DNA of 35,788 nucleotides. Origin: Minisyncoccia bacterium (GTDB lineage Bacteria; Patescibacteriota; Minisyncoccia; Phycocordibacterales; UBA2100). This document shows, piece by piece, positions 1 through 25,104 of this stretch. A model generated the notes under the pieces. That model was not told where the DNA came from. It saw only the letters and a program-made list of their open reading frames with translations, and searched no databases. Positions within the stretch are counted from its first letter, which is position 1. Each line of letters starts with the position of its first letter. The position numbers were made by a program, and so were the translations under genes. The stretch is taken from positions 1 to 35,788 of the forward strand of contig JBAQPT010000094.1 of NCBI GenBank assembly GCA_049306055.1, read 5' to 3'.

Positions 1-24
1 CCCGCCATCTTTTCAGACGATCTC

Positions 25-1338: not shown

Positions 1339-1341
1339 CGT

Positions 1342-6694: not shown

Positions 6695-6719
6695 TTGAAA
6701 AACCCGCTATACTGTCACT

Positions 6720-9346: not shown

Positions 9347-9419
9347 GGGATTAGTGTAGCGTGCTCCGTCGAGCGGTTCGGAAAATTGAATGAAGCATAG
9401 TGCATAACCGAGAGCCGGG

Positions 9420-10154
9420 TTACTCAATCGAGGGTGCTGAAATGAAAAGGGAAGGTTCGGCAATGTCGATCACCGTATTCGATCGATATGTCTCGTTTTC
9501 AAATACTAATTCACGCGCTCGGTCATGTTCAAGGCGTACGCGGACGTGTCCGCCGGGGCCGATGCGGCGCAGAAGCGACTCAAGTGTTCCACCAACGGCA
9601 GGATCCTCGTCAGAAACCGTGAATGAATACCAGTCTCCCTCGCTGCCAGTGTAGCGAAGATATTTTAGTCCGTCGGAAAAAATGCGGAGATTGTCGAGCA
9701 CCGGCCCAGTCGGTGCGATGTCTTTGTATTCAGCAGGAATGGTGTCGTTCGTAAAGCGTTTCCAGGGGCCGTGGGGAATAACGCTCTTCAATAATTCGCT
9801 TTTCGTCTCGACGAGCACGTAGGTCTCATCGCCGAGTGTTGTGGTATGGAGAAAGAATGCATGTGATTCATCGTTAAAGCGCACCGTCGTTGTCGCGAGG
9901 GTCTCATACCGACCGTTTGGCTCGTCAATACGGTATATGCCCTCGATGGTAAGCGTTCGATCGGAAAGCTCCGCCTCGGTGTGCACTGATTGCGTGTATA
10001 CGCGGATTTGGGCGCTTTTCTCGATAATTTCGTACGTATGTACATCGAGTTCGGTGTTTTCCGCTTTGAGGAAGAGAAGGTACCCTCCAAGACAGAGTCC
10101 GATGAGAAGAAGCACTGCGCCGGAAAGGAAGATATTGTGGGGGATCGAGCCCAT
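9420..10154 (-). CDS. N-terminally membrane-anchored hypothetical protein
   Basis: ATG at 10154 gives MGSIPHNIFLSGAVLLLIGLCLGGYLLFL. The rest is a soluble ~215-aa domain with no motif I recognise. It lies upstream of, and on the same strand as, the cohesin-dockerin gene. Confidence 0.6.
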   Translation of the reverse strand: MGSIPHNIFLSGAVLLLIGLCLGGYLLFLKAENTELDVHTYEIIEKSAQIRVYTQSVHTEAELSDRTLTIEGIYRIDEPNGRYETLATTTVRFNDESHAFFLHTTTLGDETYVLVETKSELLKSVIPHGPWKRFTNDTIPAEYKDIAPTGPVLDNLRIFSDGLKYLRYTGSEGDWYSFTVSDEDPAVGGTLESLLRRIGPGGHVRVRLEHDRARELVFENETYRSNTVIDIAEPSLFISAPSIE

Positions 10155-10309
10155 TACCGCTAGTATACGGGCTTTTTCGGCACTTTTAGGCTGGAAGCAC
10201 CATTCATGATGAATTTCACGTACAAAAACATGCAAAGCAAAACCTGTCGAGTTGTCCACAGCGTGTCAACCAACTGTATTGCGGCAATTATATAATAAAC
10301 CTGTCAAAT

Positions 10310-10353
10310 CTCGAGGGTCGAGATATGACCACGCGGAGATCTCGACCCCCGAG
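10310..10353. promoter_or_regulatory. 15-bp imperfect inverted repeat (candidate operator) upstream of the HTH gene
   Basis: CTCGAGGGTCGAGAT (10310-10324) and ATCTCGACCCCCGAG (10339-10353) are reverse complements with one mismatch, separated by 14 nt. The repeat ends 8 nt before ATG 10362, inside a divergent intergenic region. Confidence 0.35.
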
Positions 10354-10361
10354 ATTTATAT

Positions 10362-10757
10362 ATGGGAAGCCAAAAAAGGGAAACCGATCAATTTATCTCA
10401 CTCCGGGAAGCTGCCGAGATCTCTGGCTACACCGCTGATTATGTCGGCCAGCTAATACGCCGGGGAAAGTTGCCCGGCAAGCAGGTTTTCTCGAATGTGG
10501 CATGGGTGACGACCCGCGAAGCACTCAACGAGTATCTCGATGAAAAAAGCGATAACAATGAGATGCCAGTGGAAACGATAACGCTCAGAGACCGGCTTCT
10601 TTCAATCGAATCATTCACGCTCGTTATTCAAGCATTTCAATGGGGGGTTATTGCGTGTCTCTTCAGTATCATCCTTTTCTTTGGGTACATCCTTTCCGTG
10701 AGTGTCGATTACTCGATCAGCGAGAGGCGTATGCAGAACATTCCGTATGTTGAATAA
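10362..10757 (+). CDS. Membrane-tethered helix-turn-helix protein (excisionase/MerR-like HTH + C-terminal TM)
   Basis: The N-terminus ISLREAAEISGYTADYVGQLIRRGKLPGKQV matches the excisionase-type HTH pattern. The TM is FTLVIQAFQWGVIACLFSIILFFGYILSV. The 3' end overlaps the giant gene start by 11 nt. Confidence 0.65.
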   Translation: MGSQKRETDQFISLREAAEISGYTADYVGQLIRRGKLPGKQVFSNVAWVTTREALNEYLDEKSDNNEMPVETITLRDRLLSIESFTLVIQAFQWGVIACLFSIILFFGYILSVSVDYSISERRMQNIPYVE

Positions 10758-13700
10758 AGGAATGCACCGAGCGCTTGTCGGAGGACTACTAGTCGCGTGT
10801 CTTTTCTCATTTGTGCCGCACGTCTTCGCGGCACCCGGTGTACCGAAAATAATCAACTACCAAGGACGTCTACTCGATTCTGGTGGCGTTCTCCTTGGTG
10901 GAGCGGGGACAGAATTCTGCTTCCGTTTTTCGTTCTACGATGATCCGACGCCGGGAAGCGGGACGAAGCTCTGGCCGTCGGGAAGTCCGTCGGTTATGAC
11001 TATCGACGTGCAAAACGGTATCTTTTCAGCAGGTATTGGTGACACGAACATTGGCGGCGACACGCTCGATTACAATTTCCAAGACACCGATACGATCTAT
11101 TTGAATGTTGAAGTTGCGACACAGGTAGGCGGTTCGTGCGCGGGCGGCGATGAATCGTTCGAGACACTTTCACCGCGACATCGCATTCTCGCGTCCGGCT
11201 ATGCGATCAACGCGGGAGCTGTCGGTGGCTTTCTCGCAGCCCAGTATGCGACGGGAAATCAGATTCCCGTCCTTGCATCGGGAAATCTCACGCTCGGAGG
11301 CGTAAATCCGTTTATCAATGCGACAACGACGAACACACTGACGTTCCAGGGTGGTGGACAAGTGAGTGGCGATATTCAGTTCTTTTCCGCGGCAAATAAA
11401 ATTACAGCAGCCGGCAACGCGACATTTGCCGGAAATATTTCCGCCGCAAGTTCGACGATTACACATGCAACATCGACAACACTCTTTTCGACGTTGGGGC
11501 GATTCACGACAGCGATCATGGATACGCTCTCAGCGATAACCGCGACGATTACGAACCTCACAACAACGAATTTCACTTCGACAAACGCGACGACCACGAA
11601 TGCAACATCAACAAATCTATTTGCGGCGCAAGTTGCGTCGCCGTTTGCGACGTTTGGCACCGTTGTCGGTACGTCGAGTGCCGAATTTGCGTCGACAACA
11701 GCGCACGGCCGCTTCATCACCGGAAACGTTTTTGCAACATCGACAGCAACATCGACATTTTTCGGTCCGTTTTCTATCGGACTTGCGAATACATCGTACA
11801 AAGCATCGATTGTCGGTTCGACCACCGCCGCAACAAGCGCAACGGGTACCGCTATTCTTGCGGTCTCGAATACGAATCCGACGCTGAGTTCAGGGTCAAA
11901 CATTTTGCGCCTCAATCATCGAACAGCGTTTGGAACGACCTGTACCTCAGCTTCGACATGCCCACGATTCATTGAGTATTTCGTCGGACTTCCCGATAAC
12001 GCTGACACCGGTGGACGCGGCGTTGGAAGTCTTCGCCTTTCCACTGCGGGAACGGGCATCACGCAAACGTCCGGTGCGGCTGACTTTGCGGAATACATGG
12101 TGCTTAATTCCGCCGCAAGTGTTGGCGACATCGTTTCGCTCAACTCAAACGGTGAATATCAGCGCGCGGTCGCGGGGCAATCGCTCATCGGCGTTATTTC
12201 CGACAATCCAGCATTTGTCGGCAACGCAAATTTGGAGGATCAGCCGAATGCGTATGTTGTTGGCTTCGCGGGCGTGATTGAAACGACGGTGAGCGCCGCG
12301 AACGGGGAAATTGGCCCGGGCGATTTTATTGCCGCGTCGACGACGGCAGGCGTCGGCGTGAAGCTTCTTGAGTCCGGGTACGCGCTCGGCCAAGCGCTCG
12401 AAGGGTTCAGTGGTGGTGGCACGGGCACAATCTCGGTCCTTGTCTTTCCAAAATATATTGATGCCGCTGTTGCTCTCGAGAGTTACGGTGGTGGAGGCGG
12501 CGGAGCTTCCGGCTACTGGGATCTTGCGACATCGACTGGTGTCGTTTCGCTCGCATCGAGTACCTATTCGGTCGCTGTCGAAAATGCGACGATTACAAAT
12601 GCGTCCACAACGAATATTTCAGCGAGCTACGCATCATCAACACAAGGGTTTTTCGGTTTGCTCTCGGTCGGTAATCTCACCGGGATTTTGCGCGCGACGG
12701 CGGGGGCGATTGCGACCGGACTTGTGAATCTTGCGAGCGACGTGACAGGAATTCTCGGAATCGCAAACGGTGGCACAGGGACCTCGACTGCTCCTGCGTA
12801 CGGACAAGTCTTGGTTGGAAATGCGATTGGCGGCTACGATCTTGTTGCGACATCGTCGCTCGGAATCGTGAGCGGTGGCCTCTCGTTCGGATATCCGTTT
12901 AACGGTAACGCGACCTCAACGCTCCTCACGTTTTCCGGCGGCGTTCTTTCGACGGCATCGTCGACGATTGGCAATGGAACGGCGACGGGTGGACTCACGA
13001 TAGCAGGGAACGCAACAACGACGGGCGTGCTCGCCGTGCAAGGCGCGGGCACTTCGCAGTTCGCGGCGGGTATTGATATCGCAAGCGGCTGTTTCTCTGT
13101 CGCTGGCGACTGTCTTGAAGATGGTGGTGGCGGAGGCAGTGGTGTACTTGTGAATATTCAGACGTTTGCGGTAAACGGCACTTATATTCCGTCAGCGGGT
13201 GCAGTAACTGCGCAAGTGATCGTAACCGGCGGTGGCGGTGGCGGTGGCGGTGCGGATTCTCCCGCAGCTGACACAGCAAATGAAACGGTAGGTGGTGGTG
13301 GTGGTGCAGGTGCAACATCGATTGTATTTGTCGACCTCACGTCAACGACCTCGGTGCAAGTGGCGGTTGGCGCTGCGGGTCTTGCGGGCGCAAACACGGG
13401 CGGCACGGGCGGAACCGGCGGGCAATCGCGCTTCAGCACTTTTGCAACAGCAAACGGTGGTGTCGGTGGTGGTGGAAGCGCGGTGAATGCGGCTTGTGCT
13501 GCGGGTTCGTGGGGAACTGCGGGGACTGGCGGAAGCGCGGCATCCGGCGATGTGAATATAAATGGTGGCGACGGTCACATTGGCGATTGTCTCGCGGAAG
13601 TCGTCTTTGGCGGTCTCGGCGGCGCTAGTCATTGGGGCGGTGGCGGTCGCGGCGGTCAGGATGCTGCAAACGTATGCGCTGCGGGCGCGACGCCGGGAGT

Positions 13701-16398
13701 CTATGGTGCAGGCGGTGGCGGTGCGACTTGTGAAGACACAGATGTTGGCGCGGCTGGTGGCGTGGGCGGCGGCGGAATTGTCGTTGTCTATGAATATGGC
13801 CCATACACGGGAGTAATGGGAATTGATGATGGTGGCACCGGAACGACAACGGCGCCGACCTACGGCCAGATGCTTGTCGGTAATTCGCTCGGTGGATACG
13901 ATCTCGTCGCGACGTCGTCGCTCGGGATTCAAGGCGTGTTCTCGACAACGTCAGCAATGAATTTTGTGCACTCGTCGACGACAATTGCAAAGACCTACAC
14001 CGCAAATGTATTCACTGCGCTTCAAACATTTGGAAACGCGTCGACAACAAACATTTCGGCAAGCTATGCCTCTTCGACGCAAGGATTTTTCGGCGCGCTT
14101 TCCGTCGGGAATTTGTCGGGCGTTTTAAAAGCGACAGCAGGCGTCGTGTCGGCTTCGCTTCTTAATCTTGCATCAGAAGTAACCGGTGTTCTTGGTGTCG
14201 CAAACGGCGGAACGGGATGGGCAAATATCGCCGCCGGTACGATTCTCACCGGAAACGGCACGGGCGCGGTTTCGACAACCACGGTCGGTTCATCACTTCA
14301 AATTTCGGATGGAACACTTTCATTGAATCTCGCGAATCCGAATATTTGGACGGGCCTCCAGACGATCAACAACGCATCGTCCTCCCAAATTTCAGTGACG
14401 AATCGTGCGTACTTTGGTTCGACCGCAACGACGACAATCGATTCGGCAGGTAACGTCGCGGTCGCAGGGACATTGAACGTAGCCGGAAACACCGTTCTTG
14501 GCGCCGCAACGACAACAAATCTTCTGGTTACTTCGTCGACGACATTGCAGGATTACACATCGCGCAATGCGACGTCCTCAATGTTGTATGTTTCGACTGC
14601 GCTGAGTGGCGCGGGGCTCAGTGCGTGCTCAAGTTCGGGCGACAAGCTTCTGTGGGATAGCGCGACGCGACAATTTTCATGCGGCGCGGATGCTGGTGCG
14701 GCAGGAAGCGGTCTCACGGCGCTCGGTCCTGTTGGGCAGCAACAAACGGGTGCGTCGCAGACATTTGCTACGTCATCTGACACAAACATCGGAATGACGA
14801 TCACCTCAGCGGGCAACATACACACATTTACGACGATCTGGAACGGACTGCTCTCGGTTGCACGCGGGGGAACTGGCTGGGGCAATATCGCTGCGGGCAC
14901 GTTGCTCACGGGAAATGGAACGGGCGCCGTTGCAACGACGACCATCGCTTCTTCGCTGCAACTTTCAGGCGGCTCGCTTGCGCTCAATGTCTCGAATGCG
15001 AATGTCTGGACTGGCTTGCAGCGATTTGGTAACGCGACCTCGACCAATCTCGAATCAATCAACCAGTTTGCACGTACAATTCAATCGACATCAACGAATG
15101 CGCTCGCGCTCCGCACGAATCTTTCGTCAACCGCGGGCCTCACGATCGGCGGCACAACAACGCCAAACATGCTCTCCGCCGACACGATCAACAATCGCGT
15201 GACGATCGGCACGGGCGGTGCGTCGCCCGTTGTTTTCGTGCTTGATACAAAAAACACCGGAGGGGATCCGAGCGGTATCGATGGAGCGGAATATTACAAC
15301 AGCAACACGAGCGAATTCCGCTGCTTCAGTGGCGCGGCGTGGCGCACCTGTGGCGGTATCGCGGCGAGTTCGACCGGCGACGTGCAATTTAGAAACGCAG
15401 ACGGATCGTTTACCGCAACGTCAAATTTCAACTGGTCACTCGCAAACAACGGACTGCGTATCGTGGGAATCGCGGGACAATCCACCGATTTGTTTACGGT
15501 CGCCTCCAGCACCGGAGACCAAATGTTTGCGGTGAGCAGTCAGGGCGTACTTGAACTTGCGACGACTACGGATCCGACACCGCCAGCATCTGGTCTTAGT
15601 GTGTACGCAAAGACAATCGCCAAGAGAGCGTTTCTGGGTACCGAAGGTCCGAGCGGTCTTTCTACTTCGCTTCAGCCTTTGTTTGCGCGCAATAAAATCG
15701 GTTATTGGAATCCGCCAGGGAACGGGACGACAGTTCCTGGGGTCTTTGGATTTACCGCGCCAACAGTTGTTGGTACGGCAACAACACGCGCTGTTGCCGC
15801 AACTAACGTGGCAACTCGTATGCGACGACTTGGATACGTGAGTTCCGCGACAGCAGGGTCACTTGCTGAAGCCCGAGTTGCGGCAGCTCAATATACGGTG
15901 GGGGATGGAGCGGGGCTTGGCGGGTTCACGCTCATTGTTCGATTCATTCCTTCGAATGCTGCTGCAGTGAGCGGCGAACGCTTCTTTATCGGTATGAGAA
16001 ATGTGACAACCGCTGCAACCAATGTCGAACCGAACACGTTGACGAACACTATCGGGCTCGCACAGCTAAGTACGTCAAGTAATTGCCATATTGTTTACGG
16101 CGGCTCGGCTGCGCAAACAGCGATTGATCTTGGCAGCACGTTCGATTGCTCGACGCGCACTACGGAAGCATACGAGCTTGCGCTTTTTGCGCCTTCGAAT
16201 GCTAATAATATTGTTCACTACGAGGTCACTAAATTGAGTACCGGTGAATCTGCGTCGGGCACGCTTACCGGAACGGCAGGAACAGCGCTTCCTTCTTCAT
16301 CAACGTTGCTAGCATATCGAGCGTGGAAGTCGAATAACGCAACGGCGCTCGCGGTCGCGTTCGACATTGCGTCAATTTACATTGAAACAGACAATTAA
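10747..16398 (+). CDS. Giant (~1,880 aa) secreted fibre/adhesin built from phage-tail-fibre-like modules
   Basis: ATG 10747 (alternative 10762) gives the signal peptide ALVGGLLVACLFSFVPHVFA. Modules are: an INYQGRLLDSGG...FSFYDD...LWPS...VQNGIFSAGIGD N-domain; T-x-T-N short repeats; a DFAEYM...LIGVISDNPAFVGN autoprocessing-like domain; duplicated NGGTG modules; a Gly-rich domain; and a ~270-aa C-terminal domain. The protein is extremely Thr/Ser/Ala/Gly-rich. Confidence 0.85.
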   Translation: MLNKGMHRALVGGLLVACLFSFVPHVFAAPGVPKIINYQGRLLDSGGVLLGGAGTEFCFRFSFYDDPTPGSGTKLWPSGSPSVMTIDVQNGIFSAGIGDTNIGGDTLDYNFQDTDTIYLNVEVATQVGGSCAGGDESFETLSPRHRILASGYAINAGAVGGFLAAQYATGNQIPVLASGNLTLGGVNPFINATTTNTLTFQGGGQVSGDIQFFSAANKITAAGNATFAGNISAASSTITHATSTTLFSTLGRFTTAIMDTLSAITATITNLTTTNFTSTNATTTNATSTNLFAAQVASPFATFGTVVGTSSAEFASTTAHGRFITGNVFATSTATSTFFGPFSIGLANTSYKASIVGSTTAATSATGTAILAVSNTNPTLSSGSNILRLNHRTAFGTTCTSASTCPRFIEYFVGLPDNADTGGRGVGSLRLSTAGTGITQTSGAADFAEYMVLNSAASVGDIVSLNSNGEYQRAVAGQSLIGVISDNPAFVGNANLEDQPNAYVVGFAGVIETTVSAANGEIGPGDFIAASTTAGVGVKLLESGYALGQALEGFSGGGTGTISVLVFPKYIDAAVALESYGGGGGGASGYWDLATSTGVVSLASSTYSVAVENATITNASTTNISASYASSTQGFFGLLSVGNLTGILRATAGAIATGLVNLASDVTGILGIANGGTGTSTAPAYGQVLVGNAIGGYDLVATSSLGIVSGGLSFGYPFNGNATSTLLTFSGGVLSTASSTIGNGTATGGLTIAGNATTTGVLAVQGAGTSQFAAGIDIASGCFSVAGDCLEDGGGGGSGVLVNIQTFAVNGTYIPSAGAVTAQVIVTGGGGGGGGADSPAADTANETVGGGGGAGATSIVFVDLTSTTSVQVAVGAAGLAGANTGGTGGTGGQSRFSTFATANGGVGGGGSAVNAACAAGSWGTAGTGGSAASGDVNINGGDGHIGDCLAEVVFGGLGGASHWGGGGRGGQDAANVCAAGATPGVYGAGGGGATCEDTDVGAAGGVGGGGIVVVYEYGPYTGVMGIDDGGTGTTTAPTYGQMLVGNSLGGYDLVATSSLGIQGVFSTTSAMNFVHSSTTIAKTYTANVFTALQTFGNASTTNISASYASSTQGFFGALSVGNLSGVLKATAGVVSASLLNLASEVTGVLGVANGGTGWANIAAGTILTGNGTGAVSTTTVGSSLQISDGTLSLNLANPNIWTGLQTINNASSSQISVTNRAYFGSTATTTIDSAGNVAVAGTLNVAGNTVLGAATTTNLLVTSSTTLQDYTSRNATSSMLYVSTALSGAGLSACSSSGDKLLWDSATRQFSCGADAGAAGSGLTALGPVGQQQTGASQTFATSSDTNIGMTITSAGNIHTFTTIWNGLLSVARGGTGWGNIAAGTLLTGNGTGAVATTTIASSLQLSGGSLALNVSNANVWTGLQRFGNATSTNLESINQFARTIQSTSTNALALRTNLSSTAGLTIGGTTTPNMLSADTINNRVTIGTGGASPVVFVLDTKNTGGDPSGIDGAEYYNSNTSEFRCFSGAAWRTCGGIAASSTGDVQFRNADGSFTATSNFNWSLANNGLRIVGIAGQSTDLFTVASSTGDQMFAVSSQGVLELATTTDPTPPASGLSVYAKTIAKRAFLGTEGPSGLSTSLQPLFARNKIGYWNPPGNGTTVPGVFGFTAPTVVGTATTRAVAATNVATRMRRLGYVSSATAGSLAEARVAAAQYTVGDGAGLGGFTLIVRFIPSNAAAVSGERFFIGMRNVTTAATNVEPNTLTNTIGLAQLSTSSNCHIVYGGSAAQTAIDLGSTFDCSTRTTEAYELALFAPSNANNIVHYEVTKLSTGESASGTLTGTAGTALPSSSTLLAYRAWKSNNATALAVAFDIASIYIETDN
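12601..12780 (+). repeat. Intragenic module X, copy 1 (60 aa)
   Basis: ASTTNISASYASSTQGFFGLLSVGNLTGILRATAGAIATGLVNLASDVTGILGIANGGTG. By hand alignment 47 of 60 residues are identical to copy 2 at 14038-14217. Confidence 0.85.
12769..12867 (+). repeat. Intragenic module Y, copy 1 (33 aa)
   Basis: GGTGTSTAPAYGQVLVGNAIGGYDLVATSSLGI. 28 of 33 residues are identical to copy 2 at 13831-13929. Confidence 0.85.
13831..13929 (+). repeat. Intragenic module Y, copy 2 (33 aa)
   Basis: GGTGTTTAPTYGQMLVGNSLGGYDLVATSSLGI. It lies immediately after the Gly-rich domain. Confidence 0.85.
14038..14217 (+). repeat. Intragenic module X, copy 2 (60 aa)
   Basis: ASTTNISASYASSTQGFFGALSVGNLSGVLKATAGVVSASLLNLASEVTGVLGVANGGTG. 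The DNA is diverged, so this is an old duplication. Confidence 0.85.
14206..14361 (+). repeat. Intragenic module Z, copy 1 (52 aa)
   Basis: GGTGWANIAAGTILTGNGTGAVSTTTVGSSLQISDGTLSLNLANPNIWTGLQ. 39 of 52 residues are identical to copy 2 at 14866-15021. Confidence 0.85.
14866..15021 (+). repeat. Intragenic module Z, copy 2 (52 aa)
   Basis: GGTGWGNIAAGTLLTGNGTGAVATTTIASSLQLSGGSLALNVSNANVWTGLQ. Confidence 0.85.
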
Positions 16399-16413: not shown

Positions 16414-17334
16414 ATGAAAAAAATACTTACTCTTGTTCTCGTGTTCAGTGTGATGGGGCCCTTTTCATTCGCGCAAGAGACGGAGACTCCTGACATTGGA
16501 ATAGATGAGGTTCAAGAAATTGTGACGGAAACATCCGCCACTGCGCCTGAGGTCGCGTCGGTGGAATCTGTGACGGAGCCAGTAATTCAGGCAACGTACA
16601 ACACACAAGACGCGACGACGGGCGACACGATTGAAAATACAGAAAATCCTGAGACGGCAACAACGACGGAAAGCGAAATCGTCGCGACGATTCCAAATGT
16701 ACCGAACGCGAGCTCGTCGGAATCCGTCCTTGGCACAGCGACATCGACCGCGGAAGAGGCGACGGATGAAGCGGAGACGGTCGAAGAAAATATCGTGATC
16801 CCCGGACCGGCGTCGCTTGAAGTCGTTGAGGAAAGTATTGCAGAAGAAGTTACCGAAGAGCCCGCGGTCGAAACGATGTACGTAGAAGAATTGCAAGCTG
16901 TCGAAACGGTCGCCGTCGTACCCGAGCCGGAATTTATGTTCATGCTGACAGGAAAGAATATTCCGACGCGCAAAAAACCAGCAATTCCGGGACTTTCGGT
17001 TTCGGGAGACATTGTCTCGACGAACATTAATCCGATCGTTGATAACGACGAAGGGAGCATGATCCTCTCTGGCGCATGCTCAGAAGCGTACTATGTGGTG
17101 CTGCTCTTTAAGGAAGCTGATGACTACGAGACTGATCCGCGCTCGTACGTTCTCAATAAAGCGTATTCCTGCTTAAACGGCCTCTATACCTATTCGCTCG
17201 AAGAGGTTCCCGAGGCGCTTCCCGACGGCACGTACTACTTAATGGTGGGCTCACAAGGCGAGCGGGGGATGTGGACGCCGATCACATCGCTGACAGAGGT
17301 TACAATTAGAAGGAATCCAGAACACGAACTATGA
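16414..17334 (+). CDS. Secreted acidic (Glu/Thr/Val-rich) protein with Cys-containing C-terminal domain
   Basis: Signal peptide MKKILTLVLVFSVMGPFSFA. About 150 aa are low-complexity acidic sequence (ETETPDIGIDEVQEIVTETSA...). A ~110-aa folded-looking C-terminus follows (SGACSEAYYVVLLF...AYSCLNGLYTY). Confidence 0.7.
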   Translation: MKKILTLVLVFSVMGPFSFAQETETPDIGIDEVQEIVTETSATAPEVASVESVTEPVIQATYNTQDATTGDTIENTENPETATTTESEIVATIPNVPNASSSESVLGTATSTAEEATDEAETVEENIVIPGPASLEVVEESIAEEVTEEPAVETMYVEELQAVETVAVVPEPEFMFMLTGKNIPTRKKPAIPGLSVSGDIVSTNINPIVDNDEGSMILSGACSEAYYVVLLFKEADDYETDPRSYVLNKAYSCLNGLYTYSLEEVPEALPDGTYYLMVGSQGERGMWTPITSLTEVTIRRNPEHEL

Positions 17335-17741: not shown

Positions 17742-18200
17742 ATGCGAAACGATCCCTTAACAATCCGACTCAAAAAAGATTCCGAATGGCAGGAGCCGTC
17801 GCCGCCGATTCGACCGTCGCATTTGCCACCGCCTTCCACGCCGCGCAGAGCGCGCCGCTCGTGGCAAGGGCCGATTCTCGCTGGCATCGCGCTTCTTGCG
17901 CTCCTGTGCGTCGGCTATTTAATCTATCGCGTTTTCTTTCTTGATGCAGAGGAACGTGAGGCGCGCGAGTCGCAAGAGCTGGTCGATACCGTCGGCATGC
18001 TCATGCTGCTTCCCGCGGATGAACAACCAACAATTGCAACCGTGACGGATCTCGAGAGCTTGCGTGATCAGGAGTTTTTCCGCTACGCCGAGCTCGGCGA
18101 CATCGTGCTCATGTATCCGAAAGCCCAGCGCGCAATTCTCTATAATCCGGACGAAAACAAAATCATCGAAGTAGCGCCGATTACGATCGACGTTCAATGA
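17742..18200 (+). CDS. Small N-terminally anchored hypothetical protein (Pro/Arg-rich cytoplasmic head)
   Basis: The TM is ILAGIALLALLCVGYLIYRVFF. The soluble part reads LVDTVGMLMLLPADEQPTIATVTDLESLRDQEFFRYAELGDIVLMYP. It starts 3 nt after the upstream stop. Confidence 0.65.
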   Translation: MRNDPLTIRLKKDSEWQEPSPPIRPSHLPPPSTPRRARRSWQGPILAGIALLALLCVGYLIYRVFFLDAEEREARESQELVDTVGMLMLLPADEQPTIATVTDLESLRDQEFFRYAELGDIVLMYPKAQRAILYNPDENKIIEVAPITIDVQ

Positions 18201-18201
18201 T

Positions 18202-19515
18202 ATGGTGCTTCGCCGCGCAGCCGCTTCAACACTCGTCGCCGCGCTCCTTGCGGCGCCACTTGCGTTTGCTGACGAAAGCGCGAGTCAGAATTTTCGCGTA
18301 CAAAACGCGGCATTTAATGATTTTGGCGGCGTCGCGACCTCGGCAAGTTTTCAGGCAGTGGGAAGCGGCGGGGAGCTCGCTAACACATCGAGCTCGACCA
18401 ATTTCACCCTCGACGCCGGGCATCTATATTTTGATTCGTTTACACCGCGCTCACACAATTGGCGCTGGTACGATGACGAGGAAAACGAAACGCCATCGAG
18501 CGCGTTCGCCGCAGAAAACACCGCGCCGAATACGATTGCTACCGCGAACGTGATTAAACTTCGTGTTTCTGTTGCTGAAGTCGCGGGCCTCAGTGCGAGT
18601 ACAACGAAATTCCGCCTTCAGTTTGCAACGTCATCTGGTTTTACTAGCGGCATGTTTGCCGATGAAATTGGTGATTGCGGCGGCGGGTCGGAATGGTGTT
18701 ACGCGGATGGTGCTGGCGTCGACAACGTACTCATCACGACGGCAACGCTCTCCGATGCTGATTCGTGCGTCGCGAGTGTGGGAGATGGATGCGGGACACA
18801 CAACGAATCAGGAACCACGACTTCCGCGTATACGCACACCGCATCAACAACAGCGGAATACGAATTCACTATTGCAGAGTCAGGAGCAACCGCAAACACG
18901 ACGTATTTTTTCCGACTCTATGATGTCGCGGCGAACATCGGCGTTCCACCAAACAGTGGTGAGACGTACCCAAGCGTCTCAACGGGCGGCGGCACGCTCT
19001 CATTTGCAGTCGCAGGCATTGCCTCGTCTACCGTGATTGAAGGCATAACGACTGATGTGGATACAACAGCGGACGAGGTTCCATTTGGAACGCTCGCGCT
19101 CGGAGCTACCACCACCGCTGCGCATCGCCTCACGCTCTCGACGAATGCGACAAATGGCTACCGCGTGTTCGTCTATGAACGTCAGCAGTTTCTCCAGCAA
19201 TCGAATGCCGCAATCGAGCCTGTCTCGGGGACGAATGCGTCGCCCGTGAGCTGGGAGAGTGGTTGCCCAGGCTCCGTTGCCGGATGCTACGGGTATCACA
19301 CAAGCGACGACGTCCTCGGAAGCGGGAATGCCGCGCGCTTCGCACCGGACAACACGTACGCCGGATTCAGCGGAGGTCCGGACGAAGTCGCCTATCACAG
19401 CGGGGCAGCGGAAAATCACGAAACCGACATCGTCTACCGTGTTGTCGCACGTGATGAACAAGAAGCGGGTGCGTATGAAAGCGCAATTGTGTTTATCGCA
19501 ACACCTGTCTTTTAA
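18202..19515 (+). CDS. Secreted Thr/Ser-rich beta-rich surface protein (fibre-like protein 2 of 3; WxL-like C-terminus)
   Basis: The signal peptide ends AAPLAFA. The N-terminal duplicated motif is SQNFRVQNAAFNDFGG / SASFQAVGSGGE / STNFTLDAG. The shared block is LSFAVAGI...VPFGTLALG...LTLSTNATNGYRVFV. The terminal strand is AGAYESAIVFIATPVF. Confidence 0.65.
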   Translation: MVLRRAAASTLVAALLAAPLAFADESASQNFRVQNAAFNDFGGVATSASFQAVGSGGELANTSSSTNFTLDAGHLYFDSFTPRSHNWRWYDDEENETPSSAFAAENTAPNTIATANVIKLRVSVAEVAGLSASTTKFRLQFATSSGFTSGMFADEIGDCGGGSEWCYADGAGVDNVLITTATLSDADSCVASVGDGCGTHNESGTTTSAYTHTASTTAEYEFTIAESGATANTTYFFRLYDVAANIGVPPNSGETYPSVSTGGGTLSFAVAGIASSTVIEGITTDVDTTADEVPFGTLALGATTTAAHRLTLSTNATNGYRVFVYERQQFLQQSNAAIEPVSGTNASPVSWESGCPGSVAGCYGYHTSDDVLGSGNAARFAPDNTYAGFSGGPDEVAYHSGAAENHETDIVYRVVARDEQEAGAYESAIVFIATPVF

Positions 19516-19523
19516 GCTCTGGT

Positions 19524-20825
19524 ATGCTTACTACAATGATTCGCATCGGTGCACTTCTTTCGCTTCTTGTTTTTGTGATGCCGTTCTTCGTGCATGCGGC
19601 GGATATGGAATTGACGCCGTTTGTGATTGATGAAAAAGCGAAGGCGCGCGACATCATCAAAAAAGAACTCACCATCCGCAACACGAGCAATCGCAAACTC
19701 AATTTGTATCCGGGCGTTAACGACGTCAATCCCGAAGACGGCAAGATCGTGTTCGTTTCCGCGGTCTCGGGCGAAGACCGCGAAGCATCGCTCGCAAATT
19801 GGATCGAACTCTCGCGCGGGGTTGTTGAACTCTCGCCCGGCGAGGAAAAAACGATGCCGTTTACGATTCGCGTGAATATGACCGCGCTTCCTGGCGTGTA
19901 CCACGCGGCGATTTCTTTTTCAGAAGGTTCGACGCGTACGTCGGCGGAACAAAATGGCGAGCTCGTTACCTTGATGGTGAATGTGGAAATTCTTGCTGAC
20001 ATCAAAGAGTCGCTGCAGCTGAATAAATTTGCGACCGACAACTTTTTCCTCTCCGGCGACGATGTTCTTTTCGACTATCAATTGGAGAATACCGGTAATC
20101 AAGCGCTGCAACCGAAAGGGGAAATCAGGATTTACGATCGGCGCGGCGAAGAAATCGCGGCGGTGGAAGTAAATGGCGACGGAAAATTAGTCGCGCCGGA
20201 AGAAGTCGCGCAGCTCGCATCGGTGTGGAGCGCGGTCCAAGGGTTTGGAAAATATAAAGCGATGCTGAACGTGGAATATGGCGAAAGCCAGCTGGCGTCG
20301 GTCCAAGACACCGTCTTTTTCTGGGTTGTGCCATGGAAGCAACTCGCTCTTATGCTTACCGTAACTCTTATTGCCGTCATTATTTTCGCGCTCTACTTCC
20401 ATCGTTGGCTTGAAGAGCGGCACATGCAAAAATTTGCGCTCGCTGCGGGAATTCCGATGCCACAACCACCTCCGCCGCAGGATCCGTCGGTTCATCGCCC
20501 GGGATTCTTCGGTCGTCTCGCGGCAAAGATAGCCCCACGAAAGTCTCCGCTCATGACTATGGCACAGACAGCGCCGCCAGTTGCGCACGTAGCACCTGCA
20601 CCTCCTCCGGCGGCGCCTGCTCCTGCCGCCCCAGTTGTACCGCACGCAACTGAACTCACGCCCGCACCAGAGCGGCCGACGCTCAAAGAAGCATTAGAGC
20701 GCTCGCCGACGCCGCACTTGGACTCGTACACCGGCAACGTCATCGATCTCAAACAGCGACACGAAGCAATTCGGAAGTCTGAAGTGCCGCAATCAAGCGT
20801 GATCAACCTCAAAAAGCGCTCATGA
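19524..20825 (+). CDS. DUF916/DUF3324-like two-domain membrane anchor (paralogue 2) with ~140-aa Pro/Ala-rich cytoplasmic tail
   Basis: The signal peptide ends FFVHA. First half: LANWIELSRGVVELSPGEEKTMPFTIRVNMTALPGVYHAAISF. Second half: LENTGNQALQPKGEIRIYD...FGKYKAML. The TM is LALMLTVTLIAVIIFALYF. The tail contains PMPQPPPPQDP...APAPPPAAPAPAAPVVP. Confidence 0.6.
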   Translation: MLTTMIRIGALLSLLVFVMPFFVHAADMELTPFVIDEKAKARDIIKKELTIRNTSNRKLNLYPGVNDVNPEDGKIVFVSAVSGEDREASLANWIELSRGVVELSPGEEKTMPFTIRVNMTALPGVYHAAISFSEGSTRTSAEQNGELVTLMVNVEILADIKESLQLNKFATDNFFLSGDDVLFDYQLENTGNQALQPKGEIRIYDRRGEEIAAVEVNGDGKLVAPEEVAQLASVWSAVQGFGKYKAMLNVEYGESQLASVQDTVFFWVVPWKQLALMLTVTLIAVIIFALYFHRWLEERHMQKFALAAGIPMPQPPPPQDPSVHRPGFFGRLAAKIAPRKSPLMTMAQTAPPVAHVAPAPPPAAPAPAAPVVPHATELTPAPERPTLKEALERSPTPHLDSYTGNVIDLKQRHEAIRKSEVPQSSVINLKKRS

Positions 20826-22066
20826 TCGTACGGGGGGTTATTGGATGCGCGGTCGTACTCGGTTTTTTTGCGGGGAGCGTCGAGGCGCAGTCGCTCGCCG
20901 TTACTGTTACGCCACCCTTGTTCCAACTGACGATCGGTCCCGGCGAAACGTGGGCGAGTTCGCTTAAAGTAGTCAATACGAATGCGTACGACGTTACGTA
21001 TTTTTCAGAAATTGTTGATTTTGCAGCGGAGGGCGAAGCAGGGAACGGACGATTTATTCCGATCGTTACTACTGGTGGTGCGCACACCCTTGGCAGCTGG
21101 ATCGAATTGCCGCAAGAATCGGTGGTGATCGGCGCGGGGGCGAGTGGGGAAATTCCCTTTACCGTGCGTATTCCTGCGGACGCATCACCAGGCGGACATT
21201 ATGCGGCGGTTCTTGTGGGAACGCGGCCGCCTGGGGATCAATTGACGGGCTCCGGCGTTTCTATTTCGAGCTTCGTTTCGTCGCTTCTCTTTGTCCGTAT
21301 CGAAGGTGACGTGCACGAGAGCGGACGTATCCGCGAATTTCGCTCCGACAGCACATGGTACGAGAATGCGCTCGCACAATTCGTACTCCGCTTTGAAAAT
21401 ACCGGCAACACGCACTTGCAGCCGCAAGGGGACATAACGATCTACAATATGTGGGGGAAGGAGCGTGGCAAGGTGGCCATCAATCAAAAAACCAATTTCG
21501 GTAACGTGCTTCCACAAAGCATTCGTCGGTTCGAGTTTTCATGGGACGGCGAGGAAGAAGCGTTTGACATCGGTCGCTACAGCGCCGTCGTGACGCTCGC
21601 ATATGGGGAAGATGGAAAACAGAATGTGACAGCAACGAATTATTTTTGGGTTGTACCCGTCGTACCCGTAGCAACGACGCTCGGCGGGCTTTTCGCACTC
21701 CTCATACTTATGACGTGGCTTATTCGTCGGTATATTCGCCGCGCACTGTCGCTTGAACGTGCGCGAATGGGCATTTCCGAGTCCAGCCCACCGACATCGC
21801 CATCAATCAGTACTTTCGTACAGCCGATTCGCGAAGGCGTTGTTGATCTCCGACGACTCTCCGGCGCCGTTCCCGCAACCCCAGCATCCGAGACTGCCGC
21901 AGCGCCGCTCACGACGGGTCAGTTTGTCGGAAGGTACCGTCTTTTCTTCGTCTTTCTTATTGTTGTCGTGATCGGCTGCATTGGCGCGTGGTATTACTTC
22001 GAAAAAGCGCTCGCGCCGGAGCGGGCGTTCGAAATTTCCGCGATTGACGTCGGGGAAGAGGAATAG
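20822..22066 (+). CDS. DUF916/DUF3324-like two-domain membrane anchor (paralogue 3) with a second C-terminal TM
   Basis: ATGA overlap with the upstream gene. The signal peptide ends FFAGSVEA. First half: LGSWIELPQESVVIGAGASGEIPFTVRIPADASPGGHYAAVL. Second half: FENTGNTHLQPQGDITIYN...IGRYSAVVTL. TM1 is LGGLFALLILMTWLI and TM2 is LFFVFLIVVVIGCIGAWYYF. Confidence 0.6.
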   Translation: MIVRGVIGCAVVLGFFAGSVEAQSLAVTVTPPLFQLTIGPGETWASSLKVVNTNAYDVTYFSEIVDFAAEGEAGNGRFIPIVTTGGAHTLGSWIELPQESVVIGAGASGEIPFTVRIPADASPGGHYAAVLVGTRPPGDQLTGSGVSISSFVSSLLFVRIEGDVHESGRIREFRSDSTWYENALAQFVLRFENTGNTHLQPQGDITIYNMWGKERGKVAINQKTNFGNVLPQSIRRFEFSWDGEEEAFDIGRYSAVVTLAYGEDGKQNVTATNYFWVVPVVPVATTLGGLFALLILMTWLIRRYIRRALSLERARMGISESSPPTSPSISTFVQPIREGVVDLRRLSGAVPATPASETAAAPLTTGQFVGRYRLFFVFLIVVVIGCIGAWYYFEKALAPERAFEISAIDVGEEE

Positions 22067-22354
22067 AGGCGCCGCCGTCCGTTTCGTGTACATGATGTAC
22101 GTATGAAGTCATGCGATGTCCAATGCGTGTCACGGACGTCGCGCCCAATATATGCCTCAACAGAGCGATATAAGAGTTATCCACAATCTCACGTTATTTC
22201 AAGACACTTGTCCAATATTATCGGATACAATGCGCCGTGTGGGGAAACCCACAATCGCGACATCAGCCCTTTGACGGAGAAAGAGCGTCAAGCGGTCTCT
22301 GGTTTGTGCGAGGAAACACAATACTAGCTAACCGATTTGTTACTTACCGTTCGT

Positions 22355-23539
22355 ATGAACATTTTTAATATCCGCACTGGAGCTGGGAAGATCAATCTGA
22401 CGATTCTCGCGCTTCTCTCCGTCCTCATCTGGGCAACAGGCGCACCGGCATTCCTTTCATCGGCAAATGCAGCCGCGCTTACGAACGTAAGTGATACTCT
22501 CACCGATTCCGATTTGAACGTAGCTTCAGCTCATCGATTGCTGTTCACAACAGTGACAGCGCTTGATGCTGACGACACGATCGAAATTTCTCTCGACCCA
22601 GGCAGCGATGGCGACGACGATGAATTCACCATCAACAACCTCGGCGCTACCGATTTTCATTCAACAACAACCGTTCGCGTCGTCGGTAACACGGTCGGCG
22701 CATGTACCGGTTCCGCAAGCGAATTGTACGTTTCCACCTCGACCGCTCCGGATGACAAAGTAACGCTCACGGTCTGTACTGGCGACAGCGTTACGCCGGG
22801 GATTATCGGCTTCACCATGGGCGCGACGTCGACTCCGAAAATTACGAACCCAAACAGCGTCGGCTCAGAAATCATTCTCATCCAGACACGCAACGAAGGT
22901 GGACAAGCATCAGCCGACATCATTGATAGTGCAGAAACCCGCGTCGCGATCATCGATGACGTGACGGTTACCGCGTCTGTCGATTCAACCTTTACCTTTA
23001 CGATTACCGGTGTCGCAAACGGGCAAGCAGTGAACGGCAGTGCTACGACAACGTCGACAACAACAACCGCGACACTCATTCCATTCGAAACACTCTCGCC
23101 AAATAGCTCGAAAGTCCTGGCGCAGGATCTTGCCGTAACGACTAACGCCGCAAACGGCTTTATCGTGACCGTTGTGCAAGATCAGAACCTCACCTCGTCA
23201 ACGGGCGCTGACATCGACCTCTTCACAAACGGCGCAACAACTTCTACGCCGATCGCATGGACAACACCGACGAATACCCTGAACCAAGAATGGACGTACG
23301 GTCACATTGGTATCACGAGTGAAGACGCAGACTTGAACAGCAACGAATTCGGCACTGACCTCTGGGCAGGTAACTTCCATCTTCCGCGTCAAGTCTTCAG
23401 CCACACCGGGCCATCGGATGGCTCTACGCCGAACCAAGGCTCGACACGCGTCGGCTACCAGATCGAGATCGACTCACTCCAAGAAGCGGCCAGTGACTAC
23501 ACCAACACGCTTACTTACGTCGCGACGCCGACATTCTAA
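22355..23539 (+). CDS. Secreted Thr/Ser-rich beta-rich surface protein (fibre-like protein 3 of 3; WxL-like C-terminus)
   Basis: ATG 22355 lies inside the TTG-started ORF 22337. Signal peptide INLTILALLSVLIWATGAPAFLSSANA. The N-domain NVSDTLTDSDLNVASAHRLLFTT...ITNPNSVGSEIILIQT is also seen in CDS 25105. The shared block is FTFTITGV...IPFETLSP...LAVTTNAANGFIVTV. The terminal strand is ASDYTNTLTYVATPTF. Confidence 0.7.
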   Translation: MNIFNIRTGAGKINLTILALLSVLIWATGAPAFLSSANAAALTNVSDTLTDSDLNVASAHRLLFTTVTALDADDTIEISLDPGSDGDDDEFTINNLGATDFHSTTTVRVVGNTVGACTGSASELYVSTSTAPDDKVTLTVCTGDSVTPGIIGFTMGATSTPKITNPNSVGSEIILIQTRNEGGQASADIIDSAETRVAIIDDVTVTASVDSTFTFTITGVANGQAVNGSATTTSTTTTATLIPFETLSPNSSKVLAQDLAVTTNAANGFIVTVVQDQNLTSSTGADIDLFTNGATTSTPIAWTTPTNTLNQEWTYGHIGITSEDADLNSNEFGTDLWAGNFHLPRQVFSHTGPSDGSTPNQGSTRVGYQIEIDSLQEAASDYTNTLTYVATPTF

Positions 23540-23549
23540 TGAATACTGC

Positions 23550-23577
23550 GCCATCGTTAGAGAATAAAAACGATGGC
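23550..23577 (+). terminator. 9-bp hairpin downstream of CDS 22355 (weak terminator candidate, no U-tract)
   Basis: GCCATCGTT (23550-23558) pairs with AACGATGGC (23569-23577) around a 10-nt A-rich loop. It begins 11 nt after the TAA stop. The missing T-run lowers confidence. Confidence 0.3.
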
Positions 23578-23627
23578 AGTGCAAGGAATACCTATGATAG
23601 ACTCGGATGTGTCATTCTGAACTCTGT

Positions 23628-24698
23628 ATGACCAACCGGATCACGGTATCCCTCGTACTTCTTCTCGCACCGTTTTTCGCGGTGCTTGCTCCGGCTTCGT
23701 ATGCTGTCGCGCAGGGCGTTGAAGGTCTTCAAATCAAGCCAGCAGTCATTGAAGATAGAGCCGATCCGGGAGAGACATACAACTTTACCGTAAACGTCAC
23801 GAACGTTTCCGAAACTGAGAGAACGTTCTACCTTACTGCACAAGACATTCGTGGGCTCGACGATCGCGGTAATCCGCTCTTCGCAGAGCCAGGTGAAGGT
23901 ACGCCCTACGAATTAAGCGGATGGGTGTCGTTCCCTGGGGCGTCAATTACGCTCAAGGGCGGCGAATCTCGCAATGTTCCGATCACGGTGCGCGTCCCAC
24001 GTGAGGCCGCTCCCGGATCGCACTTCGGTGGCGTCTTTTTTGACATCGAGCCGCAGCAGGCGGAATCAACGGGCGCTGCGATCGCGCTGCGTGTTGGCAG
24101 CATCATCGCACTCCGTATTTCAGGCGATACGACGGAAGATGCGCGGTTGCGCGAATTCTCCACAGAAAAGCGCATCTACAGCACTCCGAATGTCGGCTTT
24201 AATTCTCGCGTCGAAAACCTGGGAAATGTTCTCTTGCGTCCACACGGACTTATTGAAATTACCGACATGCGCGGAACGAACGTGGCGACGGTGCGCGTGA
24301 ACGACACCGGCGCGCCGATTTTCCCCGAAACCGATCGTGTCTTCACGACTTCGTGGAATCATGACGGCTTTGCATTCGGTCGCTACCAGGCGATTGTAAG
24401 TCTTGTCTACGGCGAAGACGAACGAAAGACGATTACCGGAACGACTGCGTTCTGGGTTCTCCCCTTGAAGCCGATTTTGACTGTACTTGGGACATTTCTC
24501 GGTATCGCACTCGTTCTCTACTTGTACATCCGTATGTACATCCGACGTAAGCTTGGCGAAATGGGCGGCAATCGATCGAACGCTGATTACTACGAGCGTC
24601 GCTATCAACGATCGGCGTCGCGCATGATGTTGGTCACTGCTGCAATTTTTGTCATCGCCGTTGTCTTCCTTGCACTTCTGTTCGTGATGTTTGCGTAG
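23628..24698 (+). CDS. DUF916/DUF3324-like two-domain membrane anchor (paralogue 4) with two C-terminal TMs
   Basis: ATG 23628 gives the signal peptide MTNRITVSLVLLLAPFFAVLAPASYAVA. First half: LSGWVSFPGASITLKGGESRNVPITVRVPREAAPGSHFGGVFF. Second half: VENLGNVLLRPHGLIEITD...FGRYQAIVSL. The TMs are ILTVLGTFLGIALVLYLYI and MMLVTAAIFVIAVVFLALLFVMF. Confidence 0.6.
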   Translation: MTNRITVSLVLLLAPFFAVLAPASYAVAQGVEGLQIKPAVIEDRADPGETYNFTVNVTNVSETERTFYLTAQDIRGLDDRGNPLFAEPGEGTPYELSGWVSFPGASITLKGGESRNVPITVRVPREAAPGSHFGGVFFDIEPQQAESTGAAIALRVGSIIALRISGDTTEDARLREFSTEKRIYSTPNVGFNSRVENLGNVLLRPHGLIEITDMRGTNVATVRVNDTGAPIFPETDRVFTTSWNHDGFAFGRYQAIVSLVYGEDERKTITGTTAFWVLPLKPILTVLGTFLGIALVLYLYIRMYIRRKLGEMGGNRSNADYYERRYQRSASRMMLVTAAIFVIAVVFLALLFVMFA

Positions 24699-25082: not shown

Positions 25083-25104
25083 AATACTGTGCGATACTGT
25101 GCGT

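Follow-up and report, generated by a model that had tools for sequence, protein, structure and literature searches.

A gene for a giant fibre-like protein of 1,883 amino acids (aa) lies on a 35,788-nt stretch of DNA from a Minisyncoccia bacterium (contig JBAQPT010000094.1, positions 1 to 35,788, assembly GCA_049306055.1; Patescibacteriota), referred to below as the window. We consider it rather likely that the product, called here the giant protein, is a fibre adhesin of a Paceibacteria-type patescibacterium: Sec-exported, cell-associated, probably trimeric and assembled from modules that are swapped between genes. Behind its signal peptide come a constant N-terminal domain, a long repetitive region interrupted by an intramolecular chaperone domain of the type found in gp12 of phage phi29, and a C-terminal tip with a lectin-like fold. 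The tip has relatives in phages, the N-terminal domain has been seen so far in Patescibacteria alone, and the neighbouring genes include many for surface proteins and, among those scanned, none typical of a phage particle.

How ultra-small Patescibacteria find and hold their partners is little understood beyond type IV pili and Pam pili. It is common for a genome of the candidate phyla radiation (CPR) to encode several proteins that display lectin or other adhesive domains at the cell surface (PMC5220378). In addition to these lectin surface proteins, the concept of mosaic adhesive trimer (MAT) fibres in Bdellovibrio and a tail fibre-like neighbour of pam genes, mentioned in a preprint, were already known. 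Literature searches returned no description of a family seen so far in Patescibacteria alone and defined by a constant non-viral N-terminal domain, of its G2- or S74-type chaperones or its tips about 50% identical to phage ones, or of its recurrent membrane-protein, cohesin/dockerin and pilus-like neighbours. The locus points to a very large family of phage-fibre-like proteins which combine a constant, presumed anchor domain with exchangeable tips.

The giant gene and its signal peptide

The open reading frame (ORF) is uninterrupted from 10702 to 16398 on the + strand and gives 1,883 aa when read from the ATG at 10747, from which the residues are numbered throughout. The true start is probably the ATG at 10762, since a Shine-Dalgarno-like motif (AAAGGA) is found a few bases 5′ to it and the sole identical database protein, P0001 (100% identity, 1,878 aa), begins there. 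This ATG lies 4 nt past the stop of the preceding gene. The N-terminus, M(LNKGM)HRALVGGLLVACLFSFVPHVFA followed by AP at the predicted cleavage site, is, as judged by eye, divided into n-, h- and c-regions in the manner of Sec signal peptides. Gly, Thr, Ala and Ser are abundant in the protein and charged residues are scarce. Comparison of the protein with NCBIfam gave no match, and Pfam gave none at E≤1 to a YadA-type membrane anchor or to the head and stalk repeats of trimeric autotransporters.

A preliminary description of this stretch had proposed a single ORF of about 1,880 aa with a normal Sec signal peptide, short TxTN repeats, repeated NGGTG motifs, a Gly-rich domain, the segment YYNSNTSEFRCFSGAAWRTCG and a distinct C-terminal tip. 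All of these are present and are detailed below. It had overlooked the internal chaperone domain and the pilus-like cassette which adjoins the gene.

An N-terminal domain seen so far in Patescibacteria

The homologue set consisted of the 120 best matches to the whole giant protein. These are 1,100–3,300 aa long and all the named ones are from Patescibacteria. The N-terminal domain is present in 91 of the 120 at 50–76% identity, the chaperone domain in 67 and the query's own tip in 15–16. The mature N-terminus is strongly conserved and includes the INYQGRL motif (aa 36–42). The core of the domain, its first ~120 residues, is modelled by AF2 as a confident beta-sandwich (pLDDT >90). The second half (aa 150–246) is also conserved among homologues and gives a low-confidence monomer model, as would be expected if this segment folds solely in an oligomer.

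The domain matches nothing in Pfam or NCBIfam, and a profile of it matches no sequence in the PDB. Foldseek comparison of the model with the PDB returned generic Ig-like sandwiches alone (best E=0.03). Searched with the same profile, a collection of 1.84 billion representatives yielded 554 clusters (50% identity) at E<1e-30; at looser cut-offs, the number rises to 1,266 (E<1e-10) and 6,630 (E<1e-3). Proteins carrying the domain reach 5,948 aa. In 204 of them its start was located at a median of residue 33, directly behind the signal peptide. GTDB, with one genome per species, contains 376 confirmed relatives, the top one being from a metagenome-assembled genome of Candidatus Paceibacterota. 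The best 80 of the 376 are mostly labelled Paceibacteria, Magasanikbacteria, Uhrbacteria, Adlerbacteria, Nomurabacteria, Doudnabacteria or other Patescibacteria, in agreement with the type of organism suggested earlier from the sequence. About 20 of these 80 are labelled otherwise or generically, most often as 'uncultured Gammaproteobacteria'; we tentatively read this as automated naming or mis-binning.

No relative of the domain was found among the 2.9 million viral contigs of IMG/VR. The preliminary description had attributed the INYQGRL domain, together with the other modules, to phage or tailocin fibres. The attribution to fibres of phage type holds for the chaperone-bearing protein with its Gly_rich_2, PHROG and tip matches; for the INYQGRL domain it is rejected, as no relative was found in IMG/VR and there is no PDB match by sequence or fold. 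Because its relatives are mostly labelled as Patescibacteria and are absent from the viral contigs, the domain is, as far as sequence data go, a non-viral, cellular hallmark seen so far in this phylum alone.

An internal chaperone domain of the phi29 gp12 type

Residues 440–590 match Peptidase_G2 (PF11962, 'IMC autoproteolytic cleavage domain', IMC being the intramolecular chaperone) with E=5.4e-5. A profile built from 23 family sequences matches the C-terminal domain of phi29 gp12 in the PDB (3gqh, E=5e-4; 6qz9, E=6e-4) and also the chaperone domain D4 of tailspike Dpo31. D446, A448 and E449, which form a D-x-A-E motif within DFAEY (aa 446–450, nt 12082–12096), are invariant across the 23 aligned sequences. 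DFAEYF is the start of the 3gqh chain, and residue 691 is the last of mature gp12*. Asp446 and Glu449 of the giant protein align with Asp692 and Glu695 of gp12, at its cleavage site between Ser691 and Asp692; in line with the name of the Pfam family, we take these two gp12 residues to be catalytic. The scissile bond in the giant protein is predicted to be that between Ala445 and Asp446.

Chaperone domains of the G2 type are found in 94 of the 204 proteins with the N-terminal domain, eight of which have two, and some relatives carry a Peptidase_S74 domain (PF13884) instead. The family chaperone is typically close to the C-terminus; a helical segment and then a Pro/Glu/Thr-rich tail come after it, with a median of 329 residues beyond the domain. 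This layout resembles that of a phage fibre with a removable chaperone. The giant protein belongs to a minority of the family: behind its chaperone come a Gly linker (Gly6) and a second long fibre part.

The chaperone profile also weakly matches (E=0.013) PDB 9flp (GhpA, 5,898 aa), the grappling-hook protein of the predatory bacterium Aureispira, a hint that G2-type chaperone domains may be used in further giant prey-catching fibres.

A lectin-like tip shared with phages

The AF2 model of the C-terminal 284 residues (pLDDT 89, pTM 0.89) is a jelly roll of the concanavalin A (ConA) type. Foldseek matched it in the PDB to legume lectins and to SO2946 (E≈2e-7, template modelling score, TM-score, ≈0.5) and in BFVD to many uncultured-phage proteins, with TM-scores up to 0.95 and 51% identity. 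The BFVD matches include proteins named 'Phage tail repeat like', Mtd_N-containing proteins and giant-virus collagen-repeat proteins. The tip also matches phrog_13925 (E=1.5e-31). By tblastn, it is 54% identical to the C-terminus of gp22 of Rhodobacter phage RcKemmy, a 716-aa protein encoded in the tail-fibre slot, between a TIM-barrel (gpJ-like) protein of the gene transfer agent type and a holin. It is 49% identical to a 302-aa protein, P26059A_0006, of Curvibacter phage P26059A. At least three IMG/VR contigs carry the tip module, and in one of these (L088) it forms a 296-aa gene directly 3′ of a 2,622-aa collagen-like tail-fibre gene. The module is present in more than 900 proteins of a large protein database, most of which are 344 aa long, have an N-terminal Mtd_N domain and come from Saccharimonadales-type genomes.

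The link with Mtd_N suggested a diversity-generating retroelement. This was rejected: there is no reverse transcriptase among the scanned ORFs of the window and the fold of the tip is not that of a C-type lectin. At another giant locus (L096, 7551–7892), a gene for a four-helix-bundle protein of the 23S-rRNA-intervening-sequence/bAvd type is located upstream of another giant fibre gene. Its annotated neighbours include no reverse transcriptase, hence no evidence for a retroelement there.

Shaft repeats and mosaicism

The T.TN pattern occurs 11 times in the giant protein, five of them as tandem pentads at aa 267–290 in the presumed fibre shaft. The Thr-rich region to which these belong (aa 247–439) is poorly conserved among homologues. 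Of the GGTG motifs, NGGTG is found at aa 674 and 1153, DGGTG at 1028 and RGGTG near 1373, and all four are copies of a single ~90-aa module (aa 604–695 and 1081–1173, 63% identity; 1147–1220 and 1367–1440, 64%). The copies are old, as no direct DNA repeat of ≥30 nt is left between them, and on the same grounds recent internal duplications that could act as recombination substrates are ruled out. The Gly_rich_2 match passes its threshold (PF21722, E=1.5e-8, 35.4 bits for a cut-off of 24.3, model positions 7–224 of 226), and the domain also matches phrog_6202, 'tail fiber protein' (E=4e-13). The surrounding stretch, aa 800–1018, is 30% Gly, and the spike in GC and GC skew at 13–14 kb is accounted for by the Gly-rich domain; nothing else is needed. 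The segment YYNSNTSEFRCFSGAAWRTCG lies at aa 1516–1536 (nt 15292–15354), just before the tip, in a block (aa 1410–1883, pre-tip and tip) that is common to proteins P0005–P0013.

The first 707 residues of the giant protein are 76% identical to those of its positional orthologue P0003; beyond that point homology jumps between modules. The break-points, both with P0003 and with P0002, fall in the GGTG junction module. P0013, whose gene occupies this chromosomal position in a different genome, has kept the N-terminal domain, the chaperone region and the tip block and differs in the middle. The tip of the giant protein is 56–73% identical to short lectin proteins of 344–455 aa and, within the alignment, 28–43% identical to those of other giants. 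It is closer to the short proteins than to its own kind, and modules have therefore been exchanged between gene types.

Genomic setting

Pfam and PHROGs scans covered 37 flanking ORFs of the window. Among these 37 there is no capsid, terminase, portal, baseplate, sheath, integrase or lysis gene (a few candidate ORFs, such as 34961–35230 and some minus-strand ones overlapping called genes, lay outside the scans). One end of the window carries an ABC transporter and a MacB/FtsX permease, and the other a GT4 glycosyltransferase, a class-II aminoacyl-tRNA synthetase-like protein, signal peptidase I and peptidyl-tRNA hydrolase. In other genomes, the locus is syntenic on chromosomal contigs of 408 kb (GCA_022842645.1) and 460 kb (GCA_040959275.1), where the flanking proteins are 35–82% identical. 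The surface-protein setting without phage genes, as first described, thus stands within the window, and on the two longer contigs the locus belongs to a chromosomal backbone. The features of the window are collected in Table 1.

Table 1. Coordinates of the giant gene, its modules and neighbouring genes in the window (residues counted from ATG 10747)
Feature	Position (nt)	Residues	Strand	Characteristics
Giant fibre-like protein gene	10747..16398 (stop included)	1–1883	+	1,883 aa, or 1,878 aa from the likelier ATG 10762
Sec-type signal peptide	10747..10836	1–30	+	Predicted cleavage between VFA and AP, after aa 30
Family-defining N-terminal domain (INYQGRL)	10837..11484	31–246	+	Common to most homologues
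Thr-rich repeat region, presumed fibre shaft	11485..12063	247–439	+	23% Thr, TxTN pentads
Internal intramolecular-chaperone/autoproteolysis domain	12064..12516	440–590	+	Peptidase_G2 type; Pfam, PDB profile
First GGTG-centred junction module	12556..12966	604–740	+	Internal repeats, 63–74% aa identity
Gly_rich_2 domain	13180..13791	812–1015	+	PF21722, phrog_6202
Later GGTG junction modules and shaft segments	13807..15066	1021–1440	+	Weak PHROG matches
Pre-tip segment	14974..15543	1410–1599	+	Moves as a unit with the tip in other giants
C-terminal tip, ConA-like (legume-lectin-like) jelly roll	15544..16395	1600–1883	+	AF2, Foldseek, PHROG
HTH_17 (helix-turn-helix) protein	10362..10757		+	131 aa, one C-terminal transmembrane helix; stop 4 nt short of ATG 10762 (overlap if the start is ATG 10747)
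152-aa single-pass membrane protein	17742..18200		+	Extracellular C-terminal domain of ~90 aa; recurs downstream of giants
Pam-pilus-like cassette	18202..24698		+	NF058581, WxLIP_PGBD, transmembrane anchors
Pilin-like genes	18202–19515, 22337–23539		+	Paralogues with a shared C-terminal domain
Chaperone-like genes	19524–20825, 20822–22066, 23607–24698		+	Signal peptide and C-terminal transmembrane helix; WxLIP_PGBD matches
Cohesin-like proteins	6720–7631, 7628–8626			Signal peptide and C-terminal transmembrane anchor; Pfam matches of orthologues
Dockerin-bearing proteins	5537–6694 (+), 8615–9463 (−)		+/−	Dockerin_1 matches

Eight other loci with a giant gene were compared with the window, nine in all. 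In five of the eight (L004, L005, L089, L090, L096), the 152-aa membrane protein has a homologue encoded downstream of the giant gene; in L004, L089, L090 and L096 this homologue is directly 3′ of the giant, and in L089 and L090 it is 53–57% identical over 70 aa. This protein is a candidate anchor or assembly partner of the giant protein.

Further downstream are two pilin-like genes, each followed by genes for chaperone-like proteins with WxLIP-like beta-sandwich domains. The two pilin-like proteins are paralogues and have a ~180-aa C-terminal domain in common (E=3e-11). The product of 18202–19515 matches NF058581, CPR_Pam_pilin_C, with E=4e-7 and 30 bits, under the cut-off of 55, and comparison of the 437-aa neighbouring protein with the PDB gave no match to Pam pilins. 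The architecture agrees with that of PamC and PamD as described in the preprint (Troman et al. 2026, bioRxiv 10.64898/2026.03.03.709456), which reports Pam pilins mainly from Saccharimonadia and Microgenomatia. The whole cassette would be a distant Paceibacteria version of the Pam pilus operon. It follows the giant gene in three of the eight other loci (L004, L005, L096).

Short lectin proteins stand beside pilus-like genes in four Saccharibacteria-type loci (L003, 6460–12067; L092, 5215–10078; L093, 4600–10064; L094, 5147–9371). They consist of Mtd_N and the same tip domain, lack a signal peptide and are often encoded as tandem pairs. Their genes are divergent to genes for ~210-aa pilin-C-like and ~305-aa membrane-anchored chaperone-like proteins, which are homologous to those of the cassette in the window. 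The lectin module is therefore recurrently paired with pilus-like genes in two architectures, the giants and the short proteins. According to the same preprint, pam operons are consistently accompanied by a 'tail fibre-like protein', which it mentions once and does not analyse; the short lectin proteins may be this protein.

Upstream of the giant gene are the genes for cohesin-like and dockerin-bearing proteins, relatives of which are found near the giant in five of the eight other loci (L004, L005, L089, L090, L091). Support for the cohesin assignment is moderate: three orthologues out of 11 match Pfam Cohesin (best E=4e-7), and the top PDB matches, at E=0.028, are cohesins.

Comparison with known fibres

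In the MAT fibres of Bdellovibrio bacteriovorus (Caulton et al. 2024; PMC10769870), a signal peptide and a conserved, beta-rich N-terminal domain of ~130 aa without PDB homologue precede a trimeric shaft, which ends in an autoproteolytic chaperone of the S74 type or in a variable tip. These fibres are represented in the PDB by pieces of their C-terminal part alone. In layout the giant protein is similar: it is cellular and has a signal peptide followed by a conserved beta-rich N-terminal domain without PDB homologue. The resemblance extends to its family as a whole, with a long shaft, a chaperone of phage type in many members and swappable C-terminal tips, and Bdellovibrio lives on other bacteria, a way of life that this lineage may share. 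Where MAT fibres end in a chaperone or an alternative tip, the giant protein ends in its ConA-like lectin tip. The two differ in the type of chaperone, S74 in MAT fibres and G2 in the giant protein (S74 in some of its relatives), and in its position, which is internal here; the phylum and the envelope also differ, Patescibacteria being generally described as lacking an outer membrane.

The phi29 gp12 pre-neck appendage (3gqh, 3suc, 6qz9) shares a homologous chaperone domain in which DFAEY is kept, and the cleavage-site Asp and Glu are invariant across the family of the giant protein. In contrast to the giant protein, gp12 is part of the virion, lacks a signal peptide and carries at its end a chaperone that is shed. 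In the giant protein, the domain occupies aa 440–590 of 1,883 and the helical and Pro/Glu/Thr-rich tail is replaced by the Gly linker and a second fibre. Moreover, fibres of the gp12 type are encoded among phage tail genes, whereas the giant gene is part of a syntenic chromosomal backbone.

Lectin-fold tips of phages (phrog_13925, RcKemmy gp22, Curvibacter P26059A_0006 and Mtd_N-lectin proteins) are 49–54% identical to that of the giant protein, with TM-scores of up to 0.95 for the predicted fold, and short non-viral forms are up to 73% identical. They differ in context: where those tips are joined to fibres of phages or to Mtd_N, a trimerisation domain, here the tip is fused to a secreted cellular protein of 1,600 aa. 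The tail fibre-like protein mentioned in the Pam preprint resembles the giant protein in belonging to CPR bacteria, in being fibre-like and in its position beside a cassette for pilin and membrane-anchored chaperones, a resemblance by description. The corresponding neighbour found here in Saccharimonadia and Microgenomatia differs in being a short lectin protein without signal peptide. The giant protein itself does not have the architecture of a Pam pilin and matches no NCBIfam model.

Proposed function and alternatives

These observations are consistent with the following scheme. After removal of the signal peptide, the conserved N-terminal domain would hold the giant protein at the cell envelope, by analogy with the proximal domains of phage and MAT fibres. 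Its partner there may be the ~150-aa membrane protein that recurs near giants, one of the cohesin-like anchors or the adjoining Pam-like pilus. The Thr/Ser/Ala/Gly-rich repeats would make an elongated and probably trimeric shaft, whose folding would be nucleated by the internal chaperone domain. The chaperone may also cut between Ala445 and Asp446, because the Asp and Glu aligned to the gp12 cleavage site are kept. The distal ConA-like tip would then attach to the surface of a partner or host cell, with a glycan as the probable ligand. Specificity may evolve by cassette exchange, in which the N-terminal domain stays constant while shafts and tips are swapped among paralogues, short lectin proteins and phage receptor-binding genes.

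Several points weigh against this interpretation. The giant protein has no LPXTG motif, C-terminal transmembrane helix or other anchoring motif. The Peptidase_G2 score of 23.1 bits is below the Pfam gathering threshold of 25, and trimer formation is argued for solely by this chaperone domain of trimer type. The domain is not C-terminal, as it is in fibres of the gp12 type, and 1,313 residues follow it. A phi29-style cleavage would cut the distal part with its lectin tip off from the N-terminal anchor, an awkward outcome for an anchored fibre: either the 415-aa anchor stub and the 1,440-aa distal part would stay associated, or the distal part would be released, or cleavage would be absent in this subfamily. 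The similarity of the tip to known lectins is moderate (TM-score about 0.5), and that of the N-terminal domain to MAT fibres is one of layout. Finally, an episymbiotic life of this lineage is presumed.

The giant protein could instead be a component of the Pam-like pilus, for example a tip adhesin whose N-terminal beta-sandwich, or conserved mature N-terminus, takes part in donor-strand complementation with the pilus and which is handled by the membrane-anchored chaperone-like proteins encoded 3′ of it. The giant gene is directly upstream of pilin- and chaperone-like genes both here and in L004, L005 and L096; the lectin module occurs beside homologous genes, as short proteins, in the four Saccharibacteria-type loci; and the high conservation of the mature N-terminus and the tail fibre-like protein of the preprint point in the same direction. 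However, an hhalign comparison of the N-terminal domain with the neighbouring pilin-like protein was negative (probability 0.1), the Pam-pilin match of the neighbour falls short of the NCBIfam cut-off, and giants occur without the pilin cassette in four of the eight other loci (L089, L090, L091, L095). A trimeric fibre is also a poor fit to a filament one subunit wide, and the short Saccharibacteria lectin proteins have no signal peptide. We regard a role within the pilus as unlikely.

Slightly less probable still is a general role of the giant protein in the envelope or matrix (S-layer-associated, or serving biofilm formation or cell-cell cohesion), as part of a cohesin-dockerin system and with no specific host recognition. 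Its Gly/Thr/Ala/Ser-rich, charge-poor composition would suit such a role, cohesin-like anchors and dockerin proteins accompany giants in six of the nine loci, and several lectin or adhesive surface proteins per genome are common in CPR bacteria (PMC5220378). Yet the giant protein itself contains no dockerin or cohesin match, and hhalign of the N-terminal domain with the cohesin-like family was negative. Fast swapping of modules and tips, and tips held in common with phage receptor-binding proteins, typify specificity determinants rather than matrix components.

That the giant gene codes for the tail fibre, remnant or still in use, of some prophage, tailocin or contractile injection system, as its three phage-type modules and a tip up to 54% identical to phage proteins might suggest, is highly improbable and largely refuted by its Sec signal peptide, the lack of phage structural, lysis or integration genes among the scanned ORFs, the presence of the same locus in the conserved chromosomal backbone of other genomes, the absence of the N-terminal domain from IMG/VR and the lack of any GC anomaly beyond the Gly-codon effect.

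The reading as a cell-associated, module-swapping fibre adhesin offers concrete targets for experiment: the partner of the N-terminal domain, cleavage between Ala445 and Asp446 and the ligand of the lectin tip. It may also provide a sequence-based handle on host range. If it is correct, the theme that bacteria living on bacteria borrow the receptor-binding architecture of phages would extend from Bdellovibrio to the CPR. A bolder version, to which we assign a low probability, is that of a phylum-wide cassette system for host recognition, with a constant anchor and with shafts and tips exchanged with phage receptor-binding genes; homology of tips to phage proteins could then predict the attachment partners of uncultured episymbionts. 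In this version, the chaperone of the giant protein would cut between Ala445 and Asp446 to leave a cell-bound stub and a 1,440-aa fibre, released or non-covalently held, that works with the Pam-like pilus.

Other features of the window

Three dockerin-bearing proteins and the cohesin-like anchors are distributed across 5537–9463 and 25003–26760; they suggest that this patescibacterium has a surface scaffold in the style of a cellulosome.

A 19-nt inverted repeat (10306–10357, 95% complementary, 14-nt spacer), located in the intergenic stretch between the HTH gene and its divergent upstream neighbour, was considered as a conserved operator and rejected, since it is absent at the equivalent place in L004 and L005. 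Scans of the window for promoters and terminators gave counts at or below shuffled expectation.

The product of the HTH gene itself matches Pfam HTH_17 (E=1.7e-4) and an excisionase-type HTH in PHROGs (excisionase/MerR-like), with its transmembrane helix at aa 85–103. In L004, L005 and L096, and in 21 of 80 loci with the N-terminal domain, the giant gene is immediately preceded by a homologue. In the database protein P0095, PF12728 and the fibre are on a single polypeptide.

Between the giant gene and that of the 152-aa protein are two further genes (16414–17738), for a secreted protein of 306 aa and a membrane protein of 135 aa. The pair is present in L005 and absent from L004, and represents a small indel in an otherwise syntenic locus.

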